The position numbers and the translations under genes are program-made. A stretch of DNA of 64,000 nucleotides from a virus. Where the stretch lies: positions 1 through 64,000 of the IMG/VR virus record IMGVR_UViG_3300033182_001261; one strand, given 5' to 3'. The notes below the pieces were generated by a model. It did no database searches. It saw only the letters and a program-made list of their open reading frames with translations, and was not told the DNA's origin. Below, in pieces: positions 4,490 to 60,224 of the stretch. How positions within the stretch are numbered: position 1 is the stretch's first letter; each line of letters begins with the position of its first letter.

Positions 4490-4540
4490 TATTTATTGTA
4501 TAATATTAATATAGTACTACTTTATTTGATGGAGAAAGTG

Positions 4541-6430
4541 ATGAAAAAGACTATTATTGTTGTTTTGTTTGGATTGATTACAGCAGGTGTTGTAGGAATC
4601 CAGATGTTTTTAGGAAACCCTATTCACGATAAACCTTATTCTCATTTTGTTGAGAATGTTCGGTCAAAAAAGGTTGATGTTGTAACCATAAAAGAAAATC
4701 ATATACAATACAACATCGGGGATCATAAATTTCAAGTTGTTAGACCGAGAGGTGAATCTGGTTCAGTTAAAGAGTTGAAAGAGCATGGCATCTCGTTTTC
4801 AGTTGATGAAAAAAGAATTGATATTATTTCCCCTGTAACTCTTCTGCTATTCATGATATTTCTATCACTTTCCAGTTTTTTGATGTGGAGAGCGTATACT
4901 TTTATTAGAAGAGTTCTGGATAACATGAACTATATGAGGGGTGGTCCATTTGATGTTATCGCAGGTGGTTCTGGATCGAGTGGTCCAAGTTCTAAGGGTG
5001 GTCCTGGAGCACCTCCAAATTTAGAATCTGGTGCTAAATTCTTCGAACCAGAAAAGTCTGATGTGAAGTTTAAGGATATTGCTGGGAACGATGAAGCAAA
5101 AGATGAACTTCAGCAAGTAGTAGACTTCCTTCAAGATAATAAAAAATATAAGAAGATGGGTGCCAAATTACCTAAAGGTGTCATTCTCTATGGTCCATCG
5201 GGAACAGGTAAGACTATGTTTGCTAAAGCAATAGCAGGCGAATCTGGTGTTCCTTTTATGTATGTTTCTGGTTCTGAGTTTGTTGAAATGTATGTTGGTG
5301 TTGGTGCTGCTAGAGTTAGAGATATGTTCAATAAAGCAAGAGAAAATTCTCCTTGTGTGGTATTCATTGATGAGATTGATGCTGTAGGTAAGAGAAGGTC
5401 TGCTTCAGGAAGAGACTCTGAAAGAGACCAGACATTGAATCAGTTACTTGTTGAGATGGACGGTTTTGCTACTTCCGATTCTCAAGTTGTCATCATTGCT
5501 GCTACAAACAGATTGGAAACTCTTGATGAAGCATTATTGCGTCCAGGAAGATTTGATAAGCACATTTCCGTCGATTTACCTGACAAAGAAGGAAGAATTA
5601 AAATTCTAAATCTTCATATTGGCAAATTACCTTTACTAAATTCAGAAGTTGATATTGCTCGTCTTGCTAAAAAGTGTGTTGGATTTTCTGGTGCCGATTT
5701 AGCAAATGTGGTTAATGAAGCAGCACTCATAGCAGTCAAAGAAAGTTTAGAAGAAGTTGACCAAAACTGCCTTGAAATGGCAGTTGAAAAAGTTGCTTAT
5801 GGTTGCGAAATGAAATCAAGAAAGCAAGATGAAAAAGAACTTGAAAATACTGCTTGGCACGAGTCTGGTCATGCTATTCTCGGTCTTGTCTTAGATAACA
5901 ACGCAGAAATAGATAAAGTGACAATTGTTCCTAGGTCAAAAAGTTTAGGTCATGTTTCTTTCCTTTCAGAAGAAAAGCATTCGACTAAGAGTCAATTGCT
6001 AAACTCCATCTGTATATCTCTTGGAGGTAGAATCGGGGAAGAAATCAGATTCGGTGACTATACTCCTGGAGCAGTCTCAGATATCCGTAAAGCAACCAGT
6101 ATTGCTAGAAAGATGGTTACACGATGGGGAATGAGTGATTTGGGGTTATTGAACCTTGATAATATCTCTGACGGTTTTAGAACTCATGAAATGTCTGATG
6201 ATATGTTACAGAAGATTGATGCTAAAATCAAAGGAATTGTTGACGGTGAATATAAAAGGGCAAATAGTATTCTGAAAAAGAATAAAAAGTCTCTTAAACT
6301 TTTATCGGAAACTTTGTTAGATAAAGAAACTCTGACAGGTCAAGAAGTTGAATCTTTGCTTGCCGATATTTTAGTGAATATGGCAGATGAGTTAGTTATC
6401 AAAAAAGAAGATGAAAAGGTTGATGAATAA
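4541..6430 (+). CDS. ftsH: ATP-dependent zinc metalloprotease FtsH
   Basis: Two N-terminal TM segments, Walker A GPSGTGKT, pore FVEMYVGVG, Walker B VFIDEID, SRH ATNR..LDEALLRPGRFD, HESGH; start moved to ATG 4541 after GGAG. Confidence 0.95.
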   Translation: MKKTIIVVLFGLITAGVVGIQMFLGNPIHDKPYSHFVENVRSKKVDVVTIKENHIQYNIGDHKFQVVRPRGESGSVKELKEHGISFSVDEKRIDIISPVTLLLFMIFLSLSSFLMWRAYTFIRRVLDNMNYMRGGPFDVIAGGSGSSGPSSKGGPGAPPNLESGAKFFEPEKSDVKFKDIAGNDEAKDELQQVVDFLQDNKKYKKMGAKLPKGVILYGPSGTGKTMFAKAIAGESGVPFMYVSGSEFVEMYVGVGAARVRDMFNKARENSPCVVFIDEIDAVGKRRSASGRDSERDQTLNQLLVEMDGFATSDSQVVIIAATNRLETLDEALLRPGRFDKHISVDLPDKEGRIKILNLHIGKLPLLNSEVDIARLAKKCVGFSGADLANVVNEAALIAVKESLEEVDQNCLEMAVEKVAYGCEMKSRKQDEKELENTAWHESGHAILGLVLDNNAEIDKVTIVPRSKSLGHVSFLSEEKHSTKSQLLNSICISLGGRIGEEIRFGDYTPGAVSDIRKATSIARKMVTRWGMSDLGLLNLDNISDGFRTHEMSDDMLQKIDAKIKGIVDGEYKRANSILKKNKKSLKLLSETLLDKETLTGQEVESLLADILVNMADELVIKKEDEKVDE

Positions 6431-16332: not shown

Positions 16333-16662
16333 AATGTGTTTTTTTATAAATATATAGGAGTTTATATTATGTTTTTTGAAATCTCTACAATAGTATTATA
16401 TCTAATAAGTTCCGGAATATTCCTCATCTGTGTTTTATTTTACATGGAATCTACGTCTTACCAAAAAGGTTTTAATGATGGGAGAGAAGGTGGATATTCT
16501 TTGGGAAACTCCATGGGATATGCCACTTGCCTTGATGAACTCAAAAATAAGGGTGTTATTAAAATTGACGACAATGGAAAAATTACTGGAATCAGTAAAA
16601 ATAATAAGAAAAAATGATTAAAAACGAAAAAATCTTTTCAGTAATTTTTGGGGGAAATTATT

Positions 16663-17874
16663 ATGAAAATGTTTTTGGTATATTCTCTTTTCTTCTTTTT
16701 AGCAGTTTCACATTCCTTTAGTGATAATGCTGTTTTTGAAAAAATAAAAAATGGAACTGTTGTAATTAAGATGATGTTAGGATCTGAGAGTCGACACACT
16801 TTTAAGAATGTTGGTTCTGGGTTTATAGTTGACTCTAAAAAAGGCTATGTTATGACTTGTGCTCATGTTCTTGCTGGATGGCACGAAAGAGACAAAGATG
16901 ACAGAACATTAGCAGTTGGTTTGTTTGATGGGAGAACTGTCAAAGCAAAAACTGTATTGATGTATTACAATAGAGATGTTGCAATAGTCAAGATGATACC
17001 TAACCAGTATGTAAAACTTCCTCTTCCAGATGATTATCAAGTCTCTTTTAGAAATTCTCACGACTTAGGAATGGGTGAAAAAGTTTTTGTTCTTGGTAAT
17101 CCTATGGGTATGCAGAGAATAATGACATCTGGTATTGTCTCAAGCTTAGGTAAAAGAGTTCAAATGCCTAATCCTACACTTTACGAAAATATGATTCAAA
17201 CTGACGCAACTATCACTGGTGGTAATTCTGGTGGAGCTCTTTTTGATGGTTCAGGAAATGTTATTGGATGTGTTGTAATATCACTCAAAGATATGTATGC
17301 TTTTGCAATTCCAAGTGGTCTTTTGATACAAGTCTGGGATACATTTCTAAGTAGAAAAGTTATAGAAGCACCAATGATAGGGTTTTCTGCTCGTGATTCA
17401 AACCCAAAAGATGATAAGAGAATAAACTATCAAAGTCATATGGGTGTCATTGTCAATAAAGTTCTAAAAGGTTCTCCTGCAGCAAAAGTTCTTAAAGCAG
17501 GTGATTATATTGTAAGTCTGGACGGTGATAGAACATATGCTTCATCAATTCTAAGAGCACTATTACATGATAAGTTTGTTGGGTCCAGTTTTCAAATAAC
17601 TTATTTCAGAGATGGTAAGATGGAAACATCAAAAATCAAAACAGTAAATTCTTATTTTGATTTGAGGCAGGAAGATATTGTTATCACCAAAGAAGATAAG
17701 AAAATCACTGAGAAGAAAATAAAAAGAAAAAACCTTCATATTGAAATATTTAAAAACTTATACGGTGTCCCAAAGATTAAGAGAAGTATAACAAGAAAAG
17801 ATAAGAAGAATAAGGTAACTCCTTATCAGAAAAAATATCGTGAAACTGTTATGAAGATGGGAAATTATATTTGA
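16663..17874 (+). CDS. HtrA/DegP-like trypsin serine protease with signal peptide and PDZ domain
   Basis: GSGFIVD, TCAHV, DVAIVK, IQTDA..GGNSGGAL, PDZ GSPAA..LKAGDYI. Confidence 0.9.
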   Translation: MKMFLVYSLFFFLAVSHSFSDNAVFEKIKNGTVVIKMMLGSESRHTFKNVGSGFIVDSKKGYVMTCAHVLAGWHERDKDDRTLAVGLFDGRTVKAKTVLMYYNRDVAIVKMIPNQYVKLPLPDDYQVSFRNSHDLGMGEKVFVLGNPMGMQRIMTSGIVSSLGKRVQMPNPTLYENMIQTDATITGGNSGGALFDGSGNVIGCVVISLKDMYAFAIPSGLLIQVWDTFLSRKVIEAPMIGFSARDSNPKDDKRINYQSHMGVIVNKVLKGSPAAKVLKAGDYIVSLDGDRTYASSILRALLHDKFVGSSFQITYFRDGKMETSKIKTVNSYFDLRQEDIVITKEDKKITEKKIKRKNLHIEIFKNLYGVPKIKRSITRKDKKNKVTPYQKKYRETVMKMGNYI

Positions 17875-25550: not shown

Positions 25551-25949
25551 GTGAATATTTTAAAGATACAATATGAAGGTGAAGTTTACAAGTTCAAAAG
25601 ATTAACCTCTTTTGAAGTTTATTACATTTTAGAAACCCCTATTAACGATAAAAAAATATTCTTCTCCTATAATTTGATTTTCGAAATAAATAAACTTTCA
25701 ATGATGATGGAAAATCAATATGAATTTAAATCAGGATATCTGATTTCTGGTATAACATATGATGATTATCCCACTAGTAAAATCAAAAAAGTTCTATGTA
25801 AATCTAATTTCCCTGCTAAATCGGACTTTGATATATGTAATGTAACTCAAAAAAAATTTATAGATTTTTGTCAGAGAAACTTTTATTTAATGCTTTCAGT
25901 TGTCAATAAAGTTAATACTTCTAATTCGCATATCAACCAAAAACTATAA
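25551..25949 (+). CDS. Hypothetical protein
   Basis: N-terminus similar to ORF 20724. Confidence 0.55.
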   Translation: MNILKIQYEGEVYKFKRLTSFEVYYILETPINDKKIFFSYNLIFEINKLSMMMENQYEFKSGYLISGITYDDYPTSKIKKVLCKSNFPAKSDFDICNVTQKKFIDFCQRNFYLMLSVVNKVNTSNSHINQKL

Positions 25950-25957
25950 ATATAGGT

Positions 25958-26185
25958 ATGGAAGAAGAAACTCCAAAACCAGATTCAAAAAGCAGATGGC
26001 AAAATAGGAGAAGGATGGCTTGGATTGCCCTCACTTCTATCTTAGTCGTTACAGTTTTGGCATTCTTCGTTGTTGCTGAGTCCCGATTGAAACTATTAGG
26101 AGATGTTATCAACATGTTCTACTTATCAATGGCATCAATCGTTGGAGCATATGTTGGATTCGCAACTCTTGACAAAAAGATATAA
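25958..26185 (+). CDS. Small two-TM membrane protein (holin-like topology)
   Basis: RRRMAW + two hydrophobic helices, late promoter at 25945. Confidence 0.65.
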   Translation: MEEETPKPDSKSRWQNRRRMAWIALTSILVVTVLAFFVVAESRLKLLGDVINMFYLSMASIVGAYVGFATLDKKI

Positions 26186-26195
26186 GAGGTTTATT

Positions 26196-26375
26196 ATGAT
26201 AATAGTGCCAAAAGGAAAAGTTAAAGTATGGTGCGAGTCTTGTAATGGAAGAGGGTCTTTTGTATCCTCTTTAACAGAAATATTGAATATCTGTGAAGAT
26301 TGTGATGGTCAAGGATATATTGAAAAACAAATATCAGATTTTTTTGAGGTGGATAAAACAAAAATTGAAGGTTAA
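26196..26375 (+). CDS. Small DnaJ-type CxxCxGxG zinc-finger protein
   Basis: CESCNGRG and CEDCDGQG; GAGG RBS before ATG 26196. Confidence 0.65.
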   Translation: MIIVPKGKVKVWCESCNGRGSFVSSLTEILNICEDCDGQGYIEKQISDFFEVDKTKIEG

Positions 26376-26377
26376 CT

Positions 26378-26914
26378 ATGAAAAATTATAGTGTTTTAGA
26401 TTTTCTAGAAGAGAAAAAAGAAGAAGCAAAGAAAGATACAGTCCAAGATAAGGATATCAAAGATAGAAAAGGTTCTCAACCTAAGAAGTACTACAAAGGT
26501 CTTGCTAAATCAACAAAAGAGAAACGTGCTGCTCATTTTAAAAAGGGTGCAGCAATGAGTGATGATGACCCAAGAGCATATAAGAAAGCTCCTGGAGACG
26601 CAAGAGCGAAAACAAAAGAATCAGAATACACCAAAAAGTATAAAGAGAAGTATGGAGAAGAAGTTGAAAATGATTCTGATATACTACTAGAGAATCCTGA
26701 TAAATCTCTCAAGAAGAAAGCAGAGAAGTCTGGGATTGCGTTCTCAATACTGAAGCAAGTATATAAGAGAGGTGTTGCTGCGTGGAGAACAGGACATCGT
26801 CCTGGAACTACTCCTGAGCAGTGGGCGATGGCTCGCACTAACTCGTTTATTGTTGGAGGTAAGACGAGAACAACTGCTGATGCTGACTTATGGAAGAAAC
26901 ATAAGGGGAAATAA
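26378..26914 (+). CDS. Basic conserved phage protein (VY.RG.AAW..GHRPG.T..QWA.AR.NSF family)
   Basis: Motif recalled from T4-like and large DNA viruses; family-A N-terminal leader. Confidence 0.75.
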   Translation: MKNYSVLDFLEEKKEEAKKDTVQDKDIKDRKGSQPKKYYKGLAKSTKEKRAAHFKKGAAMSDDDPRAYKKAPGDARAKTKESEYTKKYKEKYGEEVENDSDILLENPDKSLKKKAEKSGIAFSILKQVYKRGVAAWRTGHRPGTTPEQWAMARTNSFIVGGKTRTTADADLWKKHKGK

Positions 26915-26915
26915 A

Positions 26916-28538
26916 ATGAAAAAGAGAAGATACTTTTTAGAAGATTACATTACAGAGGCGTCATTATCAGCTAAAGAGGTTGCTAAAAGGGGTAATCTTA
27001 AAATATTTTTAAGAAAATGGGTAGAAGGTGAACCTTTCGAAAAAACGGATGGTTCTCAAATCACTCTTGTTAAACCTTCCATACCTGATTTTAAAAATGA
27101 ATATTGGCAGTTTCGGAAAGATGAAACGAAAAATGATTTAAATCCAGAGAGACAACTCTATGCGCATATAACAGGGCAACTTAAAGGAGGTGTTGATATA
27201 CCGACTACTGATGGAGGCACTGTTAGATTGAGTAAGTTATTAAAAACATCCGAATTTGGAGGAGCAGGTGGTTCCAAAGGACCTTCTGGAGAAGATTGGG
27301 AAGCAATGATTGCTGTTGGTTTAGCAGTCATCGATGGGAAATCAGGGAAAACTCTCCCTGATGAGTGGAAAAGAGTTGAAAAATATTGGGGAAATGATGA
27401 ATTGAGAGAACAGGCAATGAATTTAGCAAATTCTTTTAAGAGTTCTGGATACTCTCCAATGAAACAAACTGGAAGTGGTAAGGGTGGTTCGGCAGTTTCT
27501 TCTATTTGGAAGAAATTATATGAAAAACACGGCGGTGGAGGAAAAATGAACAGTACTCCAAAAACAGATGTTATTGGTGGAGGTGTCAAAATATCTCTCA
27601 AAAAAGTTGGAGGTTCTCAGGCTATGAGTTCTAAAAACCAAGAAGCTTTTGCAACTTTTGAAGCAGCAATGTTATTATATGGAGAAAAATATCCAGGAGA
27701 AGTGAATAAAATATTAACATCCTTAAAAAACGATGTTTTAGATTTTGAGAGAAGTGGATATAAAGGAACTATAGGACAACTCAAAAAAGACCTTAAAGCA
27801 GCAGAGAGTGATCCAAGTAAATTTACTAAGAGTGAGTTGACTAAACTTAAATCTTATAAAGATGATATGGATGCTTCCTACAAAAACGCAGATAAATTAA
27901 CGAAACTAGTCAACGATATATTCCAAAAAAGTCCTAGGATGAAACAATTGTTTTTATTTGAAGCTTCTTCTGGGTCTGTTAAATTTGGAGATAAATCCAA
28001 CTCAAGAGCAGATAGATTAGTTGAGTTTGACCCAGAAAAAGGTAAAATAACTGCTGATTGGGATATTAAAACTCCAGATTCAATTGCATCGATTATGAGT
28101 AAATATAAAATTTACTTTGCTTTTAAAACTAGTGGAGATTCACCTTATATTTCACTAAGAGGGAGTATGTTGGCGTCATTGGGTGAAAGTGCTGAATATA
28201 CAGAAGATTGTCCAACTTTTTCATCAATTATTAAAGAGGCATTTAATGAAAATGAATTTGGAAGAACCTTATTATCAGAAGAATATAGTCAATTGGATGA
28301 GTTTCAATTGTTCCAAAAGATTAAATCAAAAGTTTCGGATATTAAATCAAAAGTTTTAAATAGTAAAGTGGTACAAAAGTTTTTACAAATATGGGAACGG
28401 ATAAAACAGAAAATGTCAAAGGCTTTTGATTGGATTATAAAACAAGGAAAAATGGCATTAAGTTATTTGTTGAAGTTTTTTGGAATGAAACCTTCAAGAG
28501 TTAGAGTGAATGGACCAATAGAGTTATTTACGGAGTAA
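26916..28538 (+). CDS. Large hypothetical protein with putative PD-(D/E)xK-like nuclease core
   Basis: LKTSEFGG, TPKTD...KISLKK; start at ATG 26916 after AAGGGG RBS. Confidence 0.6.
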   Translation: MKKRRYFLEDYITEASLSAKEVAKRGNLKIFLRKWVEGEPFEKTDGSQITLVKPSIPDFKNEYWQFRKDETKNDLNPERQLYAHITGQLKGGVDIPTTDGGTVRLSKLLKTSEFGGAGGSKGPSGEDWEAMIAVGLAVIDGKSGKTLPDEWKRVEKYWGNDELREQAMNLANSFKSSGYSPMKQTGSGKGGSAVSSIWKKLYEKHGGGGKMNSTPKTDVIGGGVKISLKKVGGSQAMSSKNQEAFATFEAAMLLYGEKYPGEVNKILTSLKNDVLDFERSGYKGTIGQLKKDLKAAESDPSKFTKSELTKLKSYKDDMDASYKNADKLTKLVNDIFQKSPRMKQLFLFEASSGSVKFGDKSNSRADRLVEFDPEKGKITADWDIKTPDSIASIMSKYKIYFAFKTSGDSPYISLRGSMLASLGESAEYTEDCPTFSSIIKEAFNENEFGRTLLSEEYSQLDEFQLFQKIKSKVSDIKSKVLNSKVVQKFLQIWERIKQKMSKAFDWIIKQGKMALSYLLKFFGMKPSRVRVNGPIELFTE

Positions 28539-28542
28539 TGAA

Positions 28543-29736
28543 TTATTTGTTAGGTTTTATATTACCTTCATTATCACAAATATGAGTTATTTTCCGACCA
28601 CCCTTAGAAAATATTGAAAATCTCATTCCCCTGATGCCGAAATCGGATCGAACTCCTTTTGCATTGGGGTTTAATATTTTTTCAGAAGAGCCCTTTTTCA
28701 TAGCCATTAAGTAAGGTTCGTAATCACCTGTAAGAGGAGTTCCGTTCAATTTCATAGGACCACTTGATTTCAATAAATATACATCACCTTGTTTTTTTAG
28801 TTTTGGGTCTCCTTGTAATATTGCATGGACATTATTTTCACCTTTAATTGAATTGTAATTTGGTCCGTAGGTAGCTCTACAAGAAAGTAAATTATTTTCA
28901 ATTTTTTTAGCTATTGTGAACCCTGTTTGCATATGCCATTTAGGATTATCTGTGGTATATTTTTTAACTTTTTCTATGAAATAGAGAACTTCTGGATCAT
29001 TTGATATAATTTTACCTGCTTTTGAACTCATTCCACTCCATTGACCAAAATCTTTTGCGTGACTGCCTTTTTTATGTGATATGTGCACTTCATTAACCAA
29101 TTTTCCATTTTTATATGAAACCAAAGTTAGGTCGGATTTAGGGGTTCCTGAGACTTTATTAACACCGACGATATTTTTAAATATATCTTGACCAATTTTA
29201 ATATCTATTCCATATGTTAATTTATTTTCTTTTTTTACGATATCGCATATCATTTTATTAAAATCATTAATAAAATCCTTCTCACCAGACTCACTAGCAG
29301 TAGGGTTATTTAAAATGTATGATGATAGTTTTTGCTCCTCTTTTATCAAAGATATTTGTCCCCATTCTATGTTACCTTTTTTCGTTGAAGATTTTGAATC
29401 TATTCCCCCAAATTCAGAAGTTTTTAAGATATTTCCTGTGGATATTTTCACCGAATCTTTACAGACCCACATTTTAGCCGATTTTGTTTCTGGTGGTAGT
29501 ACACTTTCAAATTTTGTTTTGAATTTTTCAAAACTCATGGTTTTTTTAATTTCTATAACAGTCTCTTTTCCTTTCCCCACTTTAATTATCATTTTATTAA
29601 ATACAAATTTTAATGATTTCCCAACGGAGATTGGTTTTATTAAATCTACAGGTATTTCTTTTGTTGCTTTTTCATGAATCACTTTCAAATTATTATTATA
29701 TCTTTTATTGAAGTGACTCCAAGTTAATCCTGCCAT
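28543..29736 (-). CDS. Hypothetical protein with putative PD-(D/E)xK-like nuclease core
   Basis: LKTSEFGG, TPKSD...HISHKKG....FGQWSG; AGGAG RBS and AATAAATA upstream. Confidence 0.6.
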   Translation of the reverse strand: MAGLTWSHFNKRYNNNLKVIHEKATKEIPVDLIKPISVGKSLKFVFNKMIIKVGKGKETVIEIKKTMSFEKFKTKFESVLPPETKSAKMWVCKDSVKISTGNILKTSEFGGIDSKSSTKKGNIEWGQISLIKEEQKLSSYILNNPTASESGEKDFINDFNKMICDIVKKENKLTYGIDIKIGQDIFKNIVGVNKVSGTPKSDLTLVSYKNGKLVNEVHISHKKGSHAKDFGQWSGMSSKAGKIISNDPEVLYFIEKVKKYTTDNPKWHMQTGFTIAKKIENNLLSCRATYGPNYNSIKGENNVHAILQGDPKLKKQGDVYLLKSSGPMKLNGTPLTGDYEPYLMAMKKGSSEKILNPNAKGVRSDFGIRGMRFSIFSKGGRKITHICDNEGNIKPNK

Positions 29737-29844
29737 ATAAACTCCTATTTTTATTTATTAGAAGTATAACATAAGTAAAAATACTTGACAATACCTTTCA
29801 AATAGTATATTATATAAATATATTCATAACAGAGGGTGAATGTA

Positions 29845-30255
29845 ATGTCCATTAAAAGAATATATAGTGTAAGAGACTTTCTGAATGAGGATTCTGAAAA
29901 AGTTGATGAGTTCTTTATTCGTAGTATGAAGAAAAGACCAAAACCTAAATATAACGATGAGGATCGTTTTGTTCCCGATGATAAAGATATTGATTATGAT
30001 AAGTTGATAAGTTTTGACAGAAACAGAGTTAATAAGATATCGAGTGTCATTTCCGCTTACCTACACAGATATTCTTCAAACTCGAAAAAGAAAGAAGATA
30101 CCATATACTTACATTTTCAACCCACTATTCGTTCATCTTTTGAGGATGTCAAGAAGCAACTCTCAAAACTAAAAAATGTTCTGAAAATAAAAAGTATAAG
30201 AGTGATGAATAGTTTAATCATGGTCACTCTTAAAAACCAACACAAATATGCGTAA
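29845..30255 (+). CDS. Hypothetical late protein with family-A leader
   Basis: TATAAATA at 29813; N-terminus YSVRDFLNE. Confidence 0.65.
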   Translation: MSIKRIYSVRDFLNEDSEKVDEFFIRSMKKRPKPKYNDEDRFVPDDKDIDYDKLISFDRNRVNKISSVISAYLHRYSSNSKKKEDTIYLHFQPTIRSSFEDVKKQLSKLKNVLKIKSIRVMNSLIMVTLKNQHKYA

Positions 30256-30968
30256 TGAATAAGAAAATTCTGAAAGAAGTGAATGAAGTTGCATGTGAAA
30301 TTATTCGTGGAGATTGTGATATAAATAAAACTAGCAAGGTTTATAAAAAGTTGATAAAAGAGATAGACAGGTTAGAGAAAAAGAAGAAAAAGACTAAGCA
30401 TACTATTGATTTGATAACTTCCGCAAAAAAGTTAGCAGAAACTATGAAAGTTTATATAGATGTGAGTGGAATTATAAAATGAAAAGAGAATGAAATGAAG
30501 CATGGTAGAAGGGCGCAACAACAAAGAAGAAAACTACGTAATAAGATTGTAGAACAATCTAATAATTCACATACCAAAGAGAGTTTAATAGGAAATTCTG
30601 TTGAAGAGTTGAAAGAAATACTCGAAAGATTTTCACTCACAAAAGAAGAATCCTCAGATATTTCTTCAATCATACCAGAACAGGAAATAGACAAAGAATA
30701 AATGGAATCAGGTAAGTTAAATATGGATTTAAAAGGCAACCCTTATCAATGGGTTAAAACAAACAACCCTAATATTTATAAGTTAGAAACAAACTTATCT
30801 ACTCAGAATTGTAAAATTCGAAGAGATATTGAATCGAATGATATAGAGATGATTGAACTGAATCAAGGTCCAAAATTCACCAACAGAATGTTGATAGACA
30901 ATAAAAGAATTGATAGGTTTGTATTAAATCTCGGAGAAATCACGGCAGAGTGTAAGAATTTGATATAA
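30255..30968 (+). CDS. Three tandem small hypothetical ORFs (30255-30482, 30495-30701, 30702-30968)
   Basis: Tightly packed, same strand. Confidence 0.55.
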
Positions 30969-31088
30969 CACACAAAAAAGTCTAAATTAGATATTTTTTT
31001 GTAAAAAATATATATTTAAATATACCAATAAATATATGTTTGGGGTATCGCGAGCAGTTCGGCATTCCGAAAAAAACCAGAGGTTTAT

Positions 31089-31700
31089 ATGAAAATGTAT
31101 AAAATACAAGACTATTTGACTGAACAGGAAAACGGTTTTCTAATATACTGCGATATGGACGGAGTACTCACAAATTATGACGGTCATTTCATTGAATATT
31201 ATCATAATCAGTTCCGAGAAACTGAACTATATCTAAAAGACTCTGATAGTTATCCTGAGTTTCCAAATGCTAAAACTGCAAATGATATCACAGGCAATCT
31301 ACACAAGAAAAAGAAGTATGAGGTTGCTAAAAAAGCGTCGAAAGAATTCTGGAGTGATATGCCTTGGCATCCGGATGGTAAAGCATTATGGAAAGCAATC
31401 AAACCACTCAACCCTATAATTCTATCAACTCCTGCTGCGAGCAAAAATAGTGAAGATGGAAAAAGGGAATGGGTCAAAACTCAACTCAAAATATCAACAG
31501 TAATTTTGAGTTCTAACAAATATGAATATGTGAAAGATAATCTATTCGTCCCAAAAGGAAAAGAAAACTATAAAAGAATTCTGATTGACGATACACCAAA
31601 GAAGATATCAGGATGGAATTCCGCAGGAGGAATAGGCATTCTACATAAATCCTCAAGAGACACAATATCAAAACTTAAAAAACTAGGAGCAATCAAATGA
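31089..31700 (+). CDS. HAD-family 5'(3')-deoxyribonucleotidase-like phosphatase
   Basis: YCDMDGVL, FW..MPW..DGK.LW, ILSTP, GK..W, ILIDD...W..AGGIGILH. Confidence 0.88.
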   Translation: MKMYKIQDYLTEQENGFLIYCDMDGVLTNYDGHFIEYYHNQFRETELYLKDSDSYPEFPNAKTANDITGNLHKKKKYEVAKKASKEFWSDMPWHPDGKALWKAIKPLNPIILSTPAASKNSEDGKREWVKTQLKISTVILSSNKYEYVKDNLFVPKGKENYKRILIDDTPKKISGWNSAGGIGILHKSSRDTISKLKKLGAIK

Positions 31701-31860
31701 TTTCATCTATATGTACACTATCAATTATTATATTAGTATCAGTTATCCTTACAAATGTTCAAATGAAAGCAAACAGAAGGATGAAGCAATTAGAGAATTC
31801 AAGAATTGTGAAAGAGGTGATAGATGAGATAAATAATAAATAAGAGATGAAAGGAATATC

Positions 31861-32100
31861 ATGGAAGAAGATGGTCATAACCCAATTTGGACACAGATTC
31901 CCAATTTAAGTGGTTGGGAATATGACGCAGCTGCCGAAAGGAAGCATACATATTCTGATAGCCCCGGAACTATAACTGGTGGAGTTAGACAATATACCAC
32001 CGCATCAGGAAATGTTTGCGAAACTTATATTAGATGTAGACAGATAGAACATCCTACAAGAATCTTAGGGGAAGTTAGTAAAACGTATTACGATAAATAA
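31861..32100 (+). CDS. Hypothetical late protein
   Basis: AATAAATA and AAGGA upstream. Confidence 0.6.
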   Translation: MEEDGHNPIWTQIPNLSGWEYDAAAERKHTYSDSPGTITGGVRQYTTASGNVCETYIRCRQIEHPTRILGEVSKTYYDK

Positions 32101-32292
32101 TAGTATGATAACATTCTTACTATGCTTTATAATAATTATTCTACTCACCAATACCATCATAACTCATATTGAAATAAAAAGAATGCTTAAGTTGTTGAAT
32201 GATGAAAATCCAGATGAGTTCAAAGAGAAAATCAAAGAGTTCAAAAACGAATACAGAACATTCATTAAACGATGGGGAAAGTTCTAACATAT

Positions 32293-32345
32293 TATAAATA
32301 TACTTGACAAGACCTACTTTATATACTATAATAATTATATAAGGT
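32293..32345 (+). promoter_or_regulatory. Adjacent late (TATAAATA) and early (TTGACA-N17-TATAAT) promoters
   Basis: TATAAATA at 32293, TTGACA at 32304, TATAAT at 32327, then TATAAGG leader. Confidence 0.7.
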
Positions 32346-32363
32346 TGAGTAAAAGGTGAGAAC

Positions 32364-32678
32364 ATGAAAAGACAATACAGACTCGAAGACTTCCTCATAG
32401 AGATGTCTGCCTCAGAAGCAGAACAAATTCTTGGACTCTCTGGTAGCTACTCAGCAGCACAAGTTAAAAGTTCCTATAAAAAGATGTCTCTGAAACATCA
32501 TCCTGATAAAGGTGGATCAACAGAGATGATGAAAAAAGTCAATGCTGCATACTTCGAAAATAGATTATATAGTGATAGTGTAAGATGGAAAGAAATGGAA
32601 TTCATAAAAGTTGATCCAAAAGAACTAATTCCTGAAGATTCCATAAAAACTTTCTACCTTTGGTATAAAAATAGATAG
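32364..32678 (+). CDS. J-domain (DnaJ-like) protein
   Basis: ILGL...VKSSYKKMSLKHHPDKGGS.EMMKKVNAAY with HPD motif. Confidence 0.88.
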   Translation: MKRQYRLEDFLIEMSASEAEQILGLSGSYSAAQVKSSYKKMSLKHHPDKGGSTEMMKKVNAAYFENRLYSDSVRWKEMEFIKVDPKELIPEDSIKTFYLWYKNR

Positions 32679-32692
32679 GAGAATTTTTTATT

Positions 32693-33115
32693 ATGAAGAT
32701 GAAAACTGTGATGGAGATAGGACAAATATTTCATAAATTACCAACAATTGAAAGAAATCATACGGATTGGAATGAAGTGGTGTTTGCAGCAATCAAGCTT
32801 GATATTAAAAAATTACTTCCTAAAACTTATAGGAAGTGGTCACTAGTCGAATGTGATGAAAATTATGGAATTTCCAGAAATCAGAATTCAATTGAAATAT
32901 TATATGTTAATACTGTTCATAGTTGCGAGATGAGATTTGAAATTTCTTCAACAATGGGAAGAACCACAAAAGATGGATACGCATACTTCGAATCGCAATG
33001 GACATATGGTAATAAAGACGAAGGAATAAGACAAAATTGGGTTATTTTTCGAGATGCTTCAGTGGCAACAATCAAAAAAGATTTAGACGCTGGTCAAAAA
33101 CTAATTAAGAAGTGA
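32693..33115 (+). CDS. Hypothetical protein, paralog of ORF 34785
   Basis: KKLLPKTYRKWSL...NSIEILY versus KKQVPKRYKNWNL...NAIEIDY. Confidence 0.7.
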   Translation: MKMKTVMEIGQIFHKLPTIERNHTDWNEVVFAAIKLDIKKLLPKTYRKWSLVECDENYGISRNQNSIEILYVNTVHSCEMRFEISSTMGRTTKDGYAYFESQWTYGNKDEGIRQNWVIFRDASVATIKKDLDAGQKLIKK

Positions 33116-34361: not shown

Positions 34362-34757
34362 ATGGAAAAGAAAACATTAATCGATTTAGCAGACTTATTG
34401 AATGAAATAAGAAACCCTCAAACAGAAATAGCAGAAGAGCATCGAGAAGAACTCGAAGAAGCTCGACAAATATCTCAAGGCGCTATAGCACCAAGTGATA
34501 TAGCACCAAGTGATATGGCAAGAATCAAAACACTTGAAAAGCTTTTCACAGCATCTTTCGAAGAATTTCATGCAAGTATTCACGGTTCTATAGTGGATCT
34601 AAACTTCAAAGGACCGAAAAGTGCTGGTGGCAATTTACTCATGGCAGAAGAATGGTTATGGATCTCAAAACAAATAAAGAAGTTGAAGATTCGATGGATT
34701 CAAATCTATAGGACTAGAGTAAGTGTAGGATTAGAATCAATAAACGAATACGATTAA
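34362..34757 (+). CDS. Hypothetical late protein with family-B leader
   Basis: ATAAATA upstream; MEKKTLIDLADLLNEIR; in-frame 15-bp tandem duplication (IAPSD x2). Confidence 0.65.
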   Translation: MEKKTLIDLADLLNEIRNPQTEIAEEHREELEEARQISQGAIAPSDIAPSDMARIKTLEKLFTASFEEFHASIHGSIVDLNFKGPKSAGGNLLMAEEWLWISKQIKKLKIRWIQIYRTRVSVGLESINEYD

Positions 34758-34784: not shown

Positions 34785-35210
34785 ATGGAAAAGAAAACTA
34801 TCAACGATATAGCAGAAATCCTACAAGAGATAAGAACGCTCCAAGAAAACGAGAATCCAGAATTTGAAAAAGAATTCACTACACTCAAAAACAATCTAAA
34901 GAAACAAGTCCCAAAGAGATATAAGAATTGGAATTTAGATAGTGTGAATGAAAAATTCGGAGAGAGAAAAGGAAGAAACGCAATAGAAATAGACTATTCA
35001 CATAAGAGCAGTGAAGAAATAATGGTAACATTTATACTTTCAACAAAGACTGCACTCATAGGTAAATTCAGAGATGGCCATATATGGTTACATGTAGAAT
35101 ATATGAATGGTGAAGATGGAGAATACTTAGCAGAGGAATGGATAAAACCAAAAGATGCTAATATAAAAACTATTCAGAAATATTTAGATATAGCAGAGAA
35201 AAAAGGGTGA
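34785..35210 (+). CDS. Hypothetical protein with family-B leader, paralog of ORF 32693
   Basis: MEKKTINDIAEILQEIR; shared body motifs with 32693. Confidence 0.7.
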   Translation: MEKKTINDIAEILQEIRTLQENENPEFEKEFTTLKNNLKKQVPKRYKNWNLDSVNEKFGERKGRNAIEIDYSHKSSEEIMVTFILSTKTALIGKFRDGHIWLHVEYMNGEDGEYLAEEWIKPKDANIKTIQKYLDIAEKKG

Positions 35211-57382: not shown

Positions 57383-58732
57383 TTAAAAAAAACTTTCCAA
57401 ACTAAAAGTTTTTTCAACTTCGAAAAATTTAGACCACATATCTTCCCCATTTTGGACAAATTTAGGATCGGCAAAAGCAGGAATGCTGTGTTCTATCCCA
57501 CAAGGAATTCCTAATGCTAAATCAATATAGTCTTGTGCTATTTTCTTTCTATCAAACTGCTTAATCATTTCAAAGTTATTGTTTGCTATTCTCTCATACT
57601 CTTCTTTTGTGATTGTCAAAAAATCGTTAATAGCATCTGCGTATTGTTTTGGAGTATAGTCATACTTCAACATCAAATAATTTTCGTCAGGAGTAAATAA
57701 AGACCCTACCCCATCCTCATTACACGATATACCAAGATTGACAGCAATAGGAACTGTTCCCATTCTCATTGCTTCAACCAAAGTTCTGTTGAAATGTTCT
57801 CCGTAAGTTTTAGACCAAGTTGAATCAATAAAGAACATTGACTCTCTCAATATTGAATCTCTTCTATTTTCTGATATGAATCCGATATATTCCATACCGT
57901 AGGTCAAAGCATTGTCCCATATCTTATTCCCTAGAAGTTCTTGCGAAGCATCTGGGTCTCTTTGTAAGGAGCAGTAATACTCTTCCTTACATTTGTCTTT
58001 GGACGTCATATATGCCCTCTCAATACCGTCCCCACCAACAATAACATCACAATAATTCAGATGAGGGACACAAGAAACTAAATCATCAACCCTTTTCATT
58101 TTCTTAAAAGTCTGGAGTGAAAAAATTTGTCTCTTACGATTCCCAAAATTTATATCTGGATTCACATCACTAATATCTTGAGGATTCAGAATCATTGACC
58201 TAGGAATATCCATAAACTCTGCCGACTTATAAGCAGAATCGTGGACACAAGCAACACCAGAAAGACTATTCTTGAATTTATAAACCCAAGGGTACAATTT
58301 CTGTAAGTTGCCATCATGGACTATCATAACCTGTTTTGATTTCACACTTTCAATCATTGGCAACCAAGTTGTATTCTTTTTGGAACTCTTATTCTTGAAT
58401 CCGAATATACTTTCCCATATTACAATATCATGCTGATTAGCCATTCGAACAAAATCATCCACACTATCTTGATTGAGAAAGGAATAATAGTTTGTCATCC
58501 ACCCTTTACCTTGATGGACAGGAATTCCTGTTCCTGGACCGATTTCATATTCGTTCTGTAAAAGTTCATCAACATTTTGAATATTCACAGTTTTAGGTTT
58601 CTGTGTTGATGGTTTTAGGAAAGCGAAAGTGACTTCATGCCCCAAATCTTTTAATCCTGCTATTAACTGCTCTGTGTGATTTATAATGCCACCATAGTTG
58701 TAAAATTGGTGGACTGGAACTAATATTTTCAT
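57383..58732 (-). CDS. GT-B fold glycosyltransferase, probable DNA base glycosyltransferase
   Basis: GGI..H.EQL..GL..LGH.V, HD, KRVDDLV, EHFNRTLVEAM; ATGA-type overlap with the dioxygenase gene. Confidence 0.8.
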   Translation of the reverse strand: MKILVPVHQFYNYGGIINHTEQLIAGLKDLGHEVTFAFLKPSTQKPKTVNIQNVDELLQNEYEIGPGTGIPVHQGKGWMTNYYSFLNQDSVDDFVRMANQHDIVIWESIFGFKNKSSKKNTTWLPMIESVKSKQVMIVHDGNLQKLYPWVYKFKNSLSGVACVHDSAYKSAEFMDIPRSMILNPQDISDVNPDINFGNRKRQIFSLQTFKKMKRVDDLVSCVPHLNYCDVIVGGDGIERAYMTSKDKCKEEYYCSLQRDPDASQELLGNKIWDNALTYGMEYIGFISENRRDSILRESMFFIDSTWSKTYGEHFNRTLVEAMRMGTVPIAVNLGISCNEDGVGSLFTPDENYLMLKYDYTPKQYADAINDFLTITKEEYERIANNNFEMIKQFDRKKIAQDYIDLALGIPCGIEHSIPAFADPKFVQNGEDMWSKFFEVEKTFSLESFF

Positions 58733-60189
58733 AAACCAAGAAATCCTTCAAGTGTTGGTGATTCTTCTTTTAGCGCTTCGGGATGATACTTCTCTAATAT
58801 ATCACTTCCCATCTTTTCTGTCAAGTAGTCATACCATTCTTGCTCATACCACATATTAGGAGATACTCCATTCCAACTTTCTCTCCATAAAGGATGATTT
58901 TGATTCATTCTTCTATCATCCACAAATTGTCTTCTTGTCTTTTCATATTCCCATGAACCTAACACCTTCATATCTTCACGGAAATAAAAGACCAAGGACA
59001 TTCTCAAAAAATCTTCCTCACCAGAATCAGGTGCTTCTATTGGAGTATTAGCATGTATAATCCTCATATTGTCTATTAGGAGTAAATCTCCTGGACGAAC
59101 ATTGATGGCAGCACGAACTTCTGGAGTGACAAGATATCCACCTTTCCAGTTTTTACCTTCTTTTGTCACAACCGTCAGATTGGAAAAACCATCATTCAAA
59201 GAACCTGCATCACGATGACATGCCATTCTAGCATTTCTATCAGCAGAAGTAGTATTCACTGTTATAGTTGTAAATACTGTATCCTCACCTATTAGAAACT
59301 TTTTATCTAGTTCATTAGTATATCCATTCTGGACACCCCATCGAACAGGCATTAATCTCTTAAATTCGGAGTTCAATTTTCTAGCAAATGGGAAAGACTT
59401 TGCGAACTTTTCCATATTCCTTTCTGTGTAAGCAACGGCTCTGCCATATGGTATTCTAGGATACCTGCCATAATACCCTGCGATACCAGACCATATTGGA
59501 TTCGCATAAACAGTTATGGAAATATATTTCTTCTTAAACTCTTCAATATACTTCTTTGCTTCTTGCACATCCATACTTTTCAACAAAGGGATAAGTTTAT
59601 TATCAAAGAATCCAACATACCTATTTCTCATAAGTCTGTCTTTATTGTCAGGATCACCAAAATCACGTGCAACCCTATAACCAATCCAAGTCATATACCT
59701 TGCTTTTGAGGAATCAATATCACCAGATTCATGCTTTTTCCTGATAGATTCTAGGACATCCGAACCATCCAAAGATTTCGGTTGACCATCCTCAAAATAT
59801 TTTATAACTTCTGCTTCATATGGAGAAACATAATCTCTCAGACTGTTTTCGTGACCATTCCCTGCAGCATATCCCCGATTATCAGAAACTACCGCAGCAT
59901 CATAAAGTCCTTCATAAGCACCTTTCTGCTCTTCTTCTGTAAAGACATTTTTTCTAAACTTAAATGCTACCCTATCTTCTGTCAAAGAATCTTTATCCCA
60001 AATATCATTTGATGGTAAATAAAAATCAGCGTCAGAATCTATCAGAATATCATAAAAAGATTCATCAGGAAAATTACCGAGAACAGTTTCATCCTTTTTT
60101 ATGAATTCTGCCACATAAACATCTTGACCCTCATCACCTTTGAATTTTTTCCAGACGTTTCCGTTAATTTCAATTGTTTCTATTTTCAT
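58729..60189 (-). CDS. TET/JBP-family 2OG-Fe(II) dioxygenase
   Basis: SGIAGYY.RYPRIP, FTTITVN, HRD (HxD), GGYLV.PE, PGDLLL.D...IHANTPI, R.SLV.Y.RE. Confidence 0.85.
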   Translation of the reverse strand: MKIETIEINGNVWKKFKGDEGQDVYVAEFIKKDETVLGNFPDESFYDILIDSDADFYLPSNDIWDKDSLTEDRVAFKFRKNVFTEEEQKGAYEGLYDAAVVSDNRGYAAGNGHENSLRDYVSPYEAEVIKYFEDGQPKSLDGSDVLESIRKKHESGDIDSSKARYMTWIGYRVARDFGDPDNKDRLMRNRYVGFFDNKLIPLLKSMDVQEAKKYIEEFKKKYISITVYANPIWSGIAGYYGRYPRIPYGRAVAYTERNMEKFAKSFPFARKLNSEFKRLMPVRWGVQNGYTNELDKKFLIGEDTVFTTITVNTTSADRNARMACHRDAGSLNDGFSNLTVVTKEGKNWKGGYLVTPEVRAAINVRPGDLLLIDNMRIIHANTPIEAPDSGEEDFLRMSLVFYFREDMKVLGSWEYEKTRRQFVDDRRMNQNHPLWRESWNGVSPNMWYEQEWYDYLTEKMGSDILEKYHPEALKEESPTLEGFLGL

Positions 60190-60195
60190 ATCAAT

Positions 60196-60224
60196 ATTAT
60201 ACACCATAAGTTAAATCATGTCAA
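60196..60224 (-). promoter_or_regulatory. Sigma70-type promoter of the dioxygenase-GT operon (probably leaderless)
   Basis: TTGACA-N17-TATAAT, 6 nt before ATG 60189. Confidence 0.75.

Follow-up and report, generated by a model that had tools for sequence, protein, structure and literature searches.

The internal proteins of T-even phages are diverse and have only their capsid targeting sequence in common, which is textbook knowledge (PMC3012670). For the T4 internal protein IPIII, the first 10 residues suffice for packaging; targeting involves residues 4 and 7, and processing involves residues 8 and 10 (PMC9026906). In the T4 record (NC_000866), IPII and IPIII both start with MKTYQEFIAE followed by Ala, and IPI starts with MKTFKEF...ITE followed by Ala. 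Propeptides of giant phages are likewise cut after Glu by a gp21-related protease (PMC5694885, PMC9026906). Another described protein relevant to this locus is Rki of phage RB43, a DnaK-binding J-domain protein that acts early in infection, is unpackaged and leaderless, and has homologues named from KP15 and Aeromonas phage 65 (PMC3486835). Here, we describe a short N-terminal leader shared by five otherwise unrelated proteins, encoded in a window of 64,000 nucleotides (nt) that forms the first part of IMG/VR virus record IMGVR_UViG_3300033182_001261, a 77,326-bp contig of an uncultured marine T4-like phage. Judged from its sequence, this leader is likely to be a lineage-specific 12-mer variant of the T4-type capsid targeting sequence that ends in a prohead-protease site, and the five proteins probably enter the virion and are trimmed inside it.

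The strict motif Y-x-[LVI]-x-D-[FY]-[LI]-x-E matches exactly five times across the six reading frames of the 77-kb contig and nowhere else. All five copies lie on the plus strand at the N-termini of open reading frames (ORFs) within 26.4-32.7 kb, a 6.3-kb cluster whose genes are referred to as A to E (Table 1). The residue before the motif Tyr is Lys or Arg in every case, and all five leaders end in [LI]-x-E. The initial annotation, made from the letters of the window, had placed five such peptides near N-termini after a basic start; each was located, and the scan of all ORFs that it called for returned the five strict matches at N-termini and none at internal positions. It had also described the protein bodies as unrelated, which agrees with their assignment to DUF5824 (A), a restriction-endonuclease-like fold (B), a protein to which no function could be assigned (C), an NT5C/HAD-type nucleotidase (D) and a J domain (E). 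The chance expectation is 0.04 matches for the DNA (100 block shuffles) and 0.004 for the called proteins (500 within-protein shuffles); the pattern itself was written from the five peptides, and replication in other contigs therefore provides the better test. Among the five motifs, codons differ at synonymous sites (TAT/TAC, GAT/GAC, CTA/ATT/CTG/TTG/CTC and GAA/GAG), indicating that conservation acts on the peptide rather than on the DNA, and the DNA upstream of the five leaders is unrelated.

Metagenomic relatives carry the leader on two additional proteins as well as on their B, C, D and E orthologues; the comparison for A covered the sister lineage only. On contigs whose D genes are 82-96% identical, it reads MKMYKIQDYLTE on D, MSIKRRYSVRDFLNE on C, MKRQYRLDDFLIE on E, MQKRRYFLEDYITE on B and MKKRYSIDNFLIE on a second J-domain protein. 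Within the C family, 76 of the 78 homologues (58-97% identical) retain the leader, with R5, Y7, F12 and E15 invariant, and the leader of D is identical in seven homologue clusters at 79-92% identity. Many D homologues of 153-156 amino acids are leaderless and start 3-5 residues before YCDMDGV, shortly past the position at which the leader of D finishes, and others carry 12-25 varied extra N-terminal residues ending in [LIVF]-x-E. Nearly all B homologues open with a leader of the form basic-aromatic-aliphatic-x-Glu (MKKSVKQYMLTE followed by Ala, MKTLNQFLQE followed by Gln or MQTFYEHLQE followed by Asp), and the similarity of their bodies starts immediately after the leader Glu. Some homologues that are 84-95% identical to B bear different leaders joined at this Glu; one has a new leader ahead of a remnant EDYITE, and one B orthologue retains the leader and has lost its entire N-terminal domain. 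These comparisons indicate that the leader is a portable add-on of 12-15 residues placed at the very start of unrelated proteins. In a sister lineage (L227 and L228, with D 65% identical), the motif Asp is replaced by Lys, Asn or Gln in six leader-tagged proteins. The spacing is unchanged in five of the six, namely MCKYSVKKYLEE on A, MNRRYKIKNFMNE on C, MSRRYNIDNYLTE on a J-domain protein, MKKYSIDKFLTE on a 118-residue protein and MYSIKNFLKE on D; the leader of B, MRSRRSVNQYMLTE, is related but longer by one residue ahead of the Glu. Between lineages, the leaders change in step.

Given a two-residue insertion after Tyr-x, the leaders of A (MKNYSVLDFLEE) and D (MKMYKIQDYLTE) align with the T4 leader such that Met-Lys, Tyr, an acidic residue, an aromatic residue, an aliphatic residue and the final Glu coincide. 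On this alignment, the conserved leader positions appear to be the targeting and processing positions of T4, with the two targeting residues further apart. A B-family alignment retrieved 80 IMG/VR loci of related marine T4-like phages, the ORFs of which often open with near-canonical T4-type 10-mers such as MKSFRRYIAE, MKQFKQFIAE, MKTFKQHIAE and MKSFNEYLTE. In these loci, 52% of the six-frame matches to the T4-type 10-mer fall at the first ATG of ORFs of at least 60 amino acids versus 4.6% of Met positions, an 11-fold excess over expectation that is spread over seven protein families. Methylophilales phage Melnitz, the nearest isolate with such leaders, whose starts include the type MKNFKNHIAE, harbors a like cluster, in which the homologues of B, A and D start with MQGFKTFLSE, MKKFSEIIE and MKSIVEVTSINE, respectively, and the genome of Pelagibacter phage HTVC008M gave zero matches to the strict motif. 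The prohead protease (PF03420) is encoded in all five large B-family relatives (135-170 kb; E-values 1e-28 to 1e-38). In one relative that was read whole (G001, 146 kb), portal and protease flank a gene at the gp68 position that starts with MKKFKELVKE, which is of the same type as the cargo leaders of that genome; the leader type is therefore tied to the head core. An incomplete coverage of the literature yielded no paper on targeting leaders or virion proteomes of pelagimyophage-like phages, nor one on the spread of such leaders through marine T4-like phages.

Table 1. Coordinates of the leader motifs, their genes and candidate promoter elements in the window
Feature	Position	Strand	Description
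Motif A, YSVLDFLEE	26387-26413	+	starts at residue 4 of ORF 26378
Motif B, YFLEDYITE	26931-26957	+	starts at residue 6 of ORF 26916
Motif C, YSVRDFLNE	29863-29889	+	starts at residue 7 of ORF 29845
Motif D, YKIQDYLTE	31098-31124	+	starts at residue 4 of ORF 31089
Motif E, YRLEDFLIE	32376-32402	+	starts at residue 5 of ORF 32364
Gene A	26378-26914	+	178 amino acids; leader MKNYSVLDFLEE (26378-26413), lysine-rich basic region, DUF5824
Gene B	26916-28538	+	540 amino acids; leader MKKRRYFLEDYITE (26916-26957), N-terminal domain, core at about 121-419, helical tail
Gene C	29845-30255	+	136 amino acids; leader MSIKRIYSVRDFLNE (29845-29889), small alpha/beta domain 55-135
Gene D	31089-31700	+	203 amino acids; leader MKMYKIQDYLTE (31089-31124), NT5C/HAD-type 5'(3')-deoxyribonucleotidase, motif CDMDGVL
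Gene E	32364-32678	+	104 amino acids; leader MKRQYRLEDFLIE (32364-32402), J domain with HPD (HHPDKGG)
Candidate promoters of the A/B operon	25945-26197	+	TATAAATA at 25945-25952; sigma-70-like site 26169-26197 (11/12)
TATAAATA before C	29813-29820	+	T4 late-promoter type, 25 nt before C; overlaps the -10 element of a sigma-70-like site at 29785-29813
AATAAATA before D	31027-31034	+	55 nt before D, inside the conserved TTTAAATATA-NN-AATAAATATAT block
TATAAATA before E	32293-32300	+	64 nt before E; followed by a perfect TTGACA-N17-TATAAT site at 32304-32332

The five bodies differ in how far they can be assigned. Protein A matches Pfam DUF5824 (E-value 1.6e-22) and the C-terminal part of phrog_3041 (E-value 1.3e-23), and an A-like region is found at the C-terminus of an HTVC008M protein annotated as 'cytidyltransferase' and inside a larger hypothetical protein of Melnitz. 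Protein B has zero matches in Pfam or PHROG and zero sequence matches in the PDB. In its AlphaFold2 model (predicted local distance difference test score (pLDDT) 74; below 50 for residues 1-25, with the leader disordered), the core aligns with MspI (VIA-align Z 8.4, root-mean-square deviation 4.0 over 185 residues), HinP1I (Z 7.8) and HhaI (Z 6.1); all other structure matches have Z values of 5.2 or lower, and Foldseek matches are weak (E-value 0.08). Residues E129, D218, S227 and K229 are invariant across 22 sequences, and this E...D...S-x-K set would fit variants of PD-(D/E)xK. On the model, the label 'nuclease-like' is reasonable but unproven. For protein C, the protein atlas and the fold search gave no function; in its model, residues 1-8 have a pLDDT below 50, and the fold matches are generic (Z below 8). 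Protein D matches phrog_2643 (E-value 3.2e-23) and scores 19.3 bits against the Pfam NT5C cut-off of 24.8 bits, so that its NT5C membership rests on the PHROG profile together with HAD motif I. Protein E matches Pfam DnaJ over the cut-off (E-value 6.4e-9) and phrog_13942 (E-value 1.3e-17). By alignment, E corresponds to a 226-residue orthologue (L221:1660-2340 and L224:11013-11693) shortened by an in-frame internal deletion: it retains the leader, the J domain (1-62) and the last approximately 42 residues of the orthologue, and approximately 120 residues between them are missing. The profile phrog_13942 also covers a 344-residue J-domain paralogue of the relatives along its whole length. Homologues of this paralogue occur in 202 cultured-phage records, the inspected ones being T4-type; leader-like starts are found in Vibrio phage VmeM-32 (MKSTKQFLME) and Aeromonas phage CC2 (MSKMFNELFE), and the homologue in Citrobacter phage Margaery has no such leader.

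Several neighboring genes touch on these proteins. Directly 5' of A (26103-26375), a 90-residue protein carries a DnaJ-type CxxCxGxG zinc finger (Pfam DnaJ_CXXCXGXG, E-value 7.8e-5, under the cut-off), and the DnaJ-like zinc finger and the J domain are encoded as separate genes in this region. In many relatives (e.g., P0019, P0031, P0039 and L187), the B-family core follows a PAP2 phosphatase domain (PF01569) in fusion proteins of 735-842 amino acids that open with a T4-type leader such as MQTFYEHLQE. A leaderless minus-strand gene of 397 codons (28543-29736, phrog_13937), convergent with B and preceded by AATAAATA 15 nt upstream, was considered as a paralogue of B and rejected, the common patch being LKTSEFGG only (BLASTP E-value 0.06); in relatives, its place is taken by a different plus-strand gene of 400 codons (phrog_1462). 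Three paralogous small genes lie 3' of E (32693-33115, 34362-34757 and 34785-35210). Two of them, at 34362 and 34785, start with MEKKT(L/I).D(L/I)A(D/E)(L/I)L.E, which is leader-like without the aromatic residues and ends in ..ED in the sister lineage; they were not counted. A generic N-terminal regular expression applied to the window also matched DNA ligase, CobS-like proteins and one other protein, all of which were judged to be ordinary helices and left uncounted.

The initial annotation had placed all five genes downstream of (T/A)ATAAATA elements. This holds at close range for C, D and E (Table 1), and only at a distance for A and B: their operon has WATAAATA at its head, 426 nt upstream of A and 964 nt upstream of B, neither gene has a promoter-like site immediately 5', and the start of B follows the stop of A by 2 nt. 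The TATAAATA element upstream of C is kept in four orthologues, and either TATAAATA or AATAAATA is kept ahead of the C, D and E orthologues, the second J-domain gene and, in the sister lineage, A and B; this conservation is stronger evidence for a late motif than enrichment in the window. In the relatives L223 and L224, the TATAAATA upstream of E is kept and the sigma-70-like part is absent. The TTTAAATATA-NN-AATAAATATAT block, followed by GGGGTAT, occurs before D (31027-31060) and its orthologues and also before A in L228 (at about 2120-2160), and looks like a mobile regulatory cassette among leader genes, consisting of a late-promoter variant and a downstream element. In T4, GTTTACA...TACTAT lies upstream of ipI (NC_000866). 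For the leader genes, expression both early and late would be the simplest reading of these upstream sequences. We take the sequence upstream of T4 ipI to be an early-type promoter, and since early-type sequence is thus found there too, the sigma-70-like sites before leader genes were not treated as a refutation.

The contig represents approximately 35% of a genome (CheckV), and the G+C content of the window is 29-37%. It encodes T4-type replication and accessory functions, including a gp61-type primase, a ribonucleotide reductase, an RNase H-type exonuclease and an ATP-dependent ligase, as well as duplicated CobS/CobT-like pairs, and the leader genes are placed among accessory genes, far from any head module. 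Among cultured phages, HTVC008M and Melnitz are the only DNA-level relatives, and pieces of the region were found again in marine and seawater metagenomes of 11 studies, with no RNA data set listed among the public runs. Close homologues of C and D sit on contigs of 139-179 kb (P0074/P0230, P0249 and P0256). The C homologue of P0256 lies on a 138.5-kb contig filed in NCBI under a 'Rickettsiales bacterium' metagenome-assembled genome (MAG); this is probably a phage contig binned with a SAR11-like genome and gives a weak host hint. Exact-peptide searches of IMG/VR with B and D returned no close relatives, and a scan of genome contigs found one distant D homologue only, in a Saprospira MAG. A degenerate-DNA pattern of the leader run over IMG/VR gave mostly single out-of-frame chance matches and was not used as evidence. 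The window also encodes a full-length FtsH (AAA and peptidase M41, E-value 7.5e-55; 4496-6430) and a DegP/HtrA-like protease (Trypsin_2 and PDZ; 16648-17874). Escherichia coli FtsH degrades sigma-32 delivered by DnaK/DnaJ, and a functional link between FtsH and the J-domain proteins is conceivable. On the minus strand (57383-60207), a Tet/JBP-type dioxygenase (PF12851, E-value 3.7e-13) adjoins a GT1 glycosyltransferase (PF00534, E-value 8.5e-9); the pair suggests that DNA bases are hydroxylated and glycosylated, which would be of consequence should a nuclease share the capsid with the genome.

In the proposed mechanism, the leader would bind the scaffolding core of the assembling prohead, and the tagged protein would be enclosed as the shell forms. 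Cleavage by a gp21-type prohead protease behind the Glu of [LI]-x-E would then release the leader peptide, and the mature protein would remain with the packaged DNA. The cargo would comprise the basic DUF5824 protein, the MspI-like nuclease-fold protein, the NT5C nucleotidase, an Rki-like J protein engaging host DnaK, and C. Less certainly, this cargo may be delivered into the host, exiting together with the DNA when the next cell is infected and acting before any phage gene is expressed. The lineage-specific, T4-type address tag put forward in the initial annotation is the best-supported reading, backed by the T4 match, the add-on modularity, the in-step change and the protease in relatives; the injection step added to it is the less certain part. 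A further, tentative extension, which we think more doubtful than the packaging itself, is that the capsid carries an injected host-takeover kit of MspI-like endonuclease, Rki-like J proteins and deoxynucleoside monophosphate (dNMP) nucleotidase, with leader and receptor co-evolving as a compatibility code. Under this extension, Rki-like J-domain proteins would seize host DnaK at time zero, and the packaged endonuclease would be harmless to the phage DNA because that DNA would be hypermodified by the dioxygenase and glycosyltransferase encoded on the contig. Co-evolution of leader and receptor would likewise account for cargo leaders that have changed together (T4-type 10-mer, Asp 12-mer and Asn/Lys 12-mer) and that are swapped at the Glu.

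Several observations weigh against a capsid-targeting role. Loose forms of the motif match ordinary N-terminal helices, for example that of DNA ligase (MKNYSEIVKE), so that only the strict motif is diagnostic; in HTVC008M, leaders found with a loose regular expression were rejected, as the N-termini of UvsX and a gp5-like protein match too, and leaders are unclear in that phage. The spacing from Tyr to the aromatic residue is 5 here and 3 in T4, which makes functional equivalence an assumption. Head, tail, capsid, scaffold and prohead-protease (PF03420) genes are all absent from the 77-kb contig, a fragment of approximately 35% of the genome. WATAAATA is barely enriched in the AT-rich window (33 occurrences versus 22.9 +/- 4.5 expected). 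The top three sigma-70-like sites of the region precede E (12/12), C (11/12) and A/B (11/12), and occurrence in early proteins, which the initial annotation had set down as contrary evidence, is in part what these promoters point to. Finally, injecting a nucleotidase seems odd, and RB43 Rki does its work early, unpackaged and without a leader.

That T4 proteins loaded by the capsid targeting sequence, foreign ones included, are ejected into the host (PMC9026906) makes it unlikely that the leader targets the prohead core and is cleaved there while the proteins serve assembly or DNA condensation, or ride passively, with no effector delivered. The nuclease-like protein, the nucleotidase and the Rki-like J protein look host-directed, and the position of the leader genes, amid accessory genes and distant from the head module, also speaks against such a role. 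Nevertheless, in T4, gp21 also processes the core proteins gp67, gp68 and gp22, none of which is an effector (PMC5694885), the gp68-position protein of G001 has the same leader type, A is very basic in the manner of a DNA-binding filler, and recruitment of DnaK by the J domain could aid assembly.

We consider it improbable that the leader docks instead on a non-capsid partner, such as the sliding clamp, the phage FtsH or another protease (with the leader as a degron), a chaperone or a tag-recognising modifying enzyme. The sigma-70-like promoters before A/B, C and E, suggestive of early proteins, would suit such a partner, as would the FtsH and the DegP-like protease encoded on the contig, and LDFL in the leader of A is, as we take it, reminiscent of the clamp-binding peptides of T4. 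However, T4-type clamp-binding peptides, which act in replication and late transcription, are C-terminal, have an (S/T)LDFL-like consensus and lack a terminal x-E, whereas all five leaders are N-terminal and LDFL occurs in A only. In addition, the T4 leader matches in position, length, residues and ending more closely than any docking alternative, and related genomes place the same leader type on a head-module gene. No radical-SAM gene, whose product could be such a modifying enzyme, is present on the 77-kb contig, which as a fragment makes this weak evidence. The notion of a functionless peptide, arising by chance or as the remnant of a single 5' gene end that recombination has distributed among neighboring genes, is barely credible: the clustering in 6.3 kb and the shuffling of gene ends in T4-like hyperplastic regions would allow it, but it is contradicted by the synonymous differences among the five leaders with their unrelated upstream regions, by the chance expectation of 0.04 and by the C family, in which the leader persists in 76 of 78 homologues while the body falls to 58% identity.

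If capsid targeting by the leader holds true, the T4 head-loading system would not be confined to enterobacterial T-even phages but would be general and evolvable in abundant marine T4-like phages, and virion cargo would be predictable from sequence alone in uncultivable phages. For this phage, the particle would then be predicted to contain a nuclease resembling restriction enzymes, a nucleotidase and a DnaK co-chaperone domain. The leader variants would constitute a natural experiment on the joint change of tag and receptor, and could provide orthogonal tags for protein delivery by engineered capsids. If this reading fails, the five would be early proteins with a common docking peptide, which would itself be new.

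Compared with known systems, the giant phages phiKZ, 201phi2-1 and SPN3US resemble this locus in that head-internal proteins, including subunits of the virion RNA polymerase, are loaded via N-terminal propeptides; however, most of these propeptides exceed 100 residues and have no single short common motif, and the replication and head genes of these phages are not T4-like. The J domain with HPD in E and its relatives is shared with Rki, but Rki begins at the J domain and has an early promoter, whereas E has the leader first and a largely deleted C-terminal domain. Among monomeric type IIP enzymes, MspI, HinP1I and HhaI all superpose on the modeled core of B (121-419), which differs in its large helical insertion and its extra N- and C-terminal parts, and for which no methyltransferase partner was identified. 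The closest system is that of the T4 internal proteins IPI, IPII and IPIII, together with the Alt propeptide. It differs in that the T4 leader was shown by experiment and is removed by gp21, whereas the leader here is known from its sequence; in that the Glu before the aromatic residue in T4 is replaced by Asp; and in that the predicted cargo consists of enzymes and a co-chaperone domain rather than the small basic anti-restriction proteins of T4. The likeness lies in N-terminal leaders of 10-19 residues on otherwise unrelated proteins, with Met-Lys, an aromatic residue and then an acidic-aromatic-aliphatic-x-Glu end, in bodies that diverge while the leader stays (PMC3012670, PMC9026906) and in late-type promoter motifs upstream. 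This kind of system is already known from T4, and the idea is less new than the initial annotation implied; what is new is the spacing of the leader, the types of cargo, the lineage-wide co-change of the leaders and their spread through marine T4-like phages.

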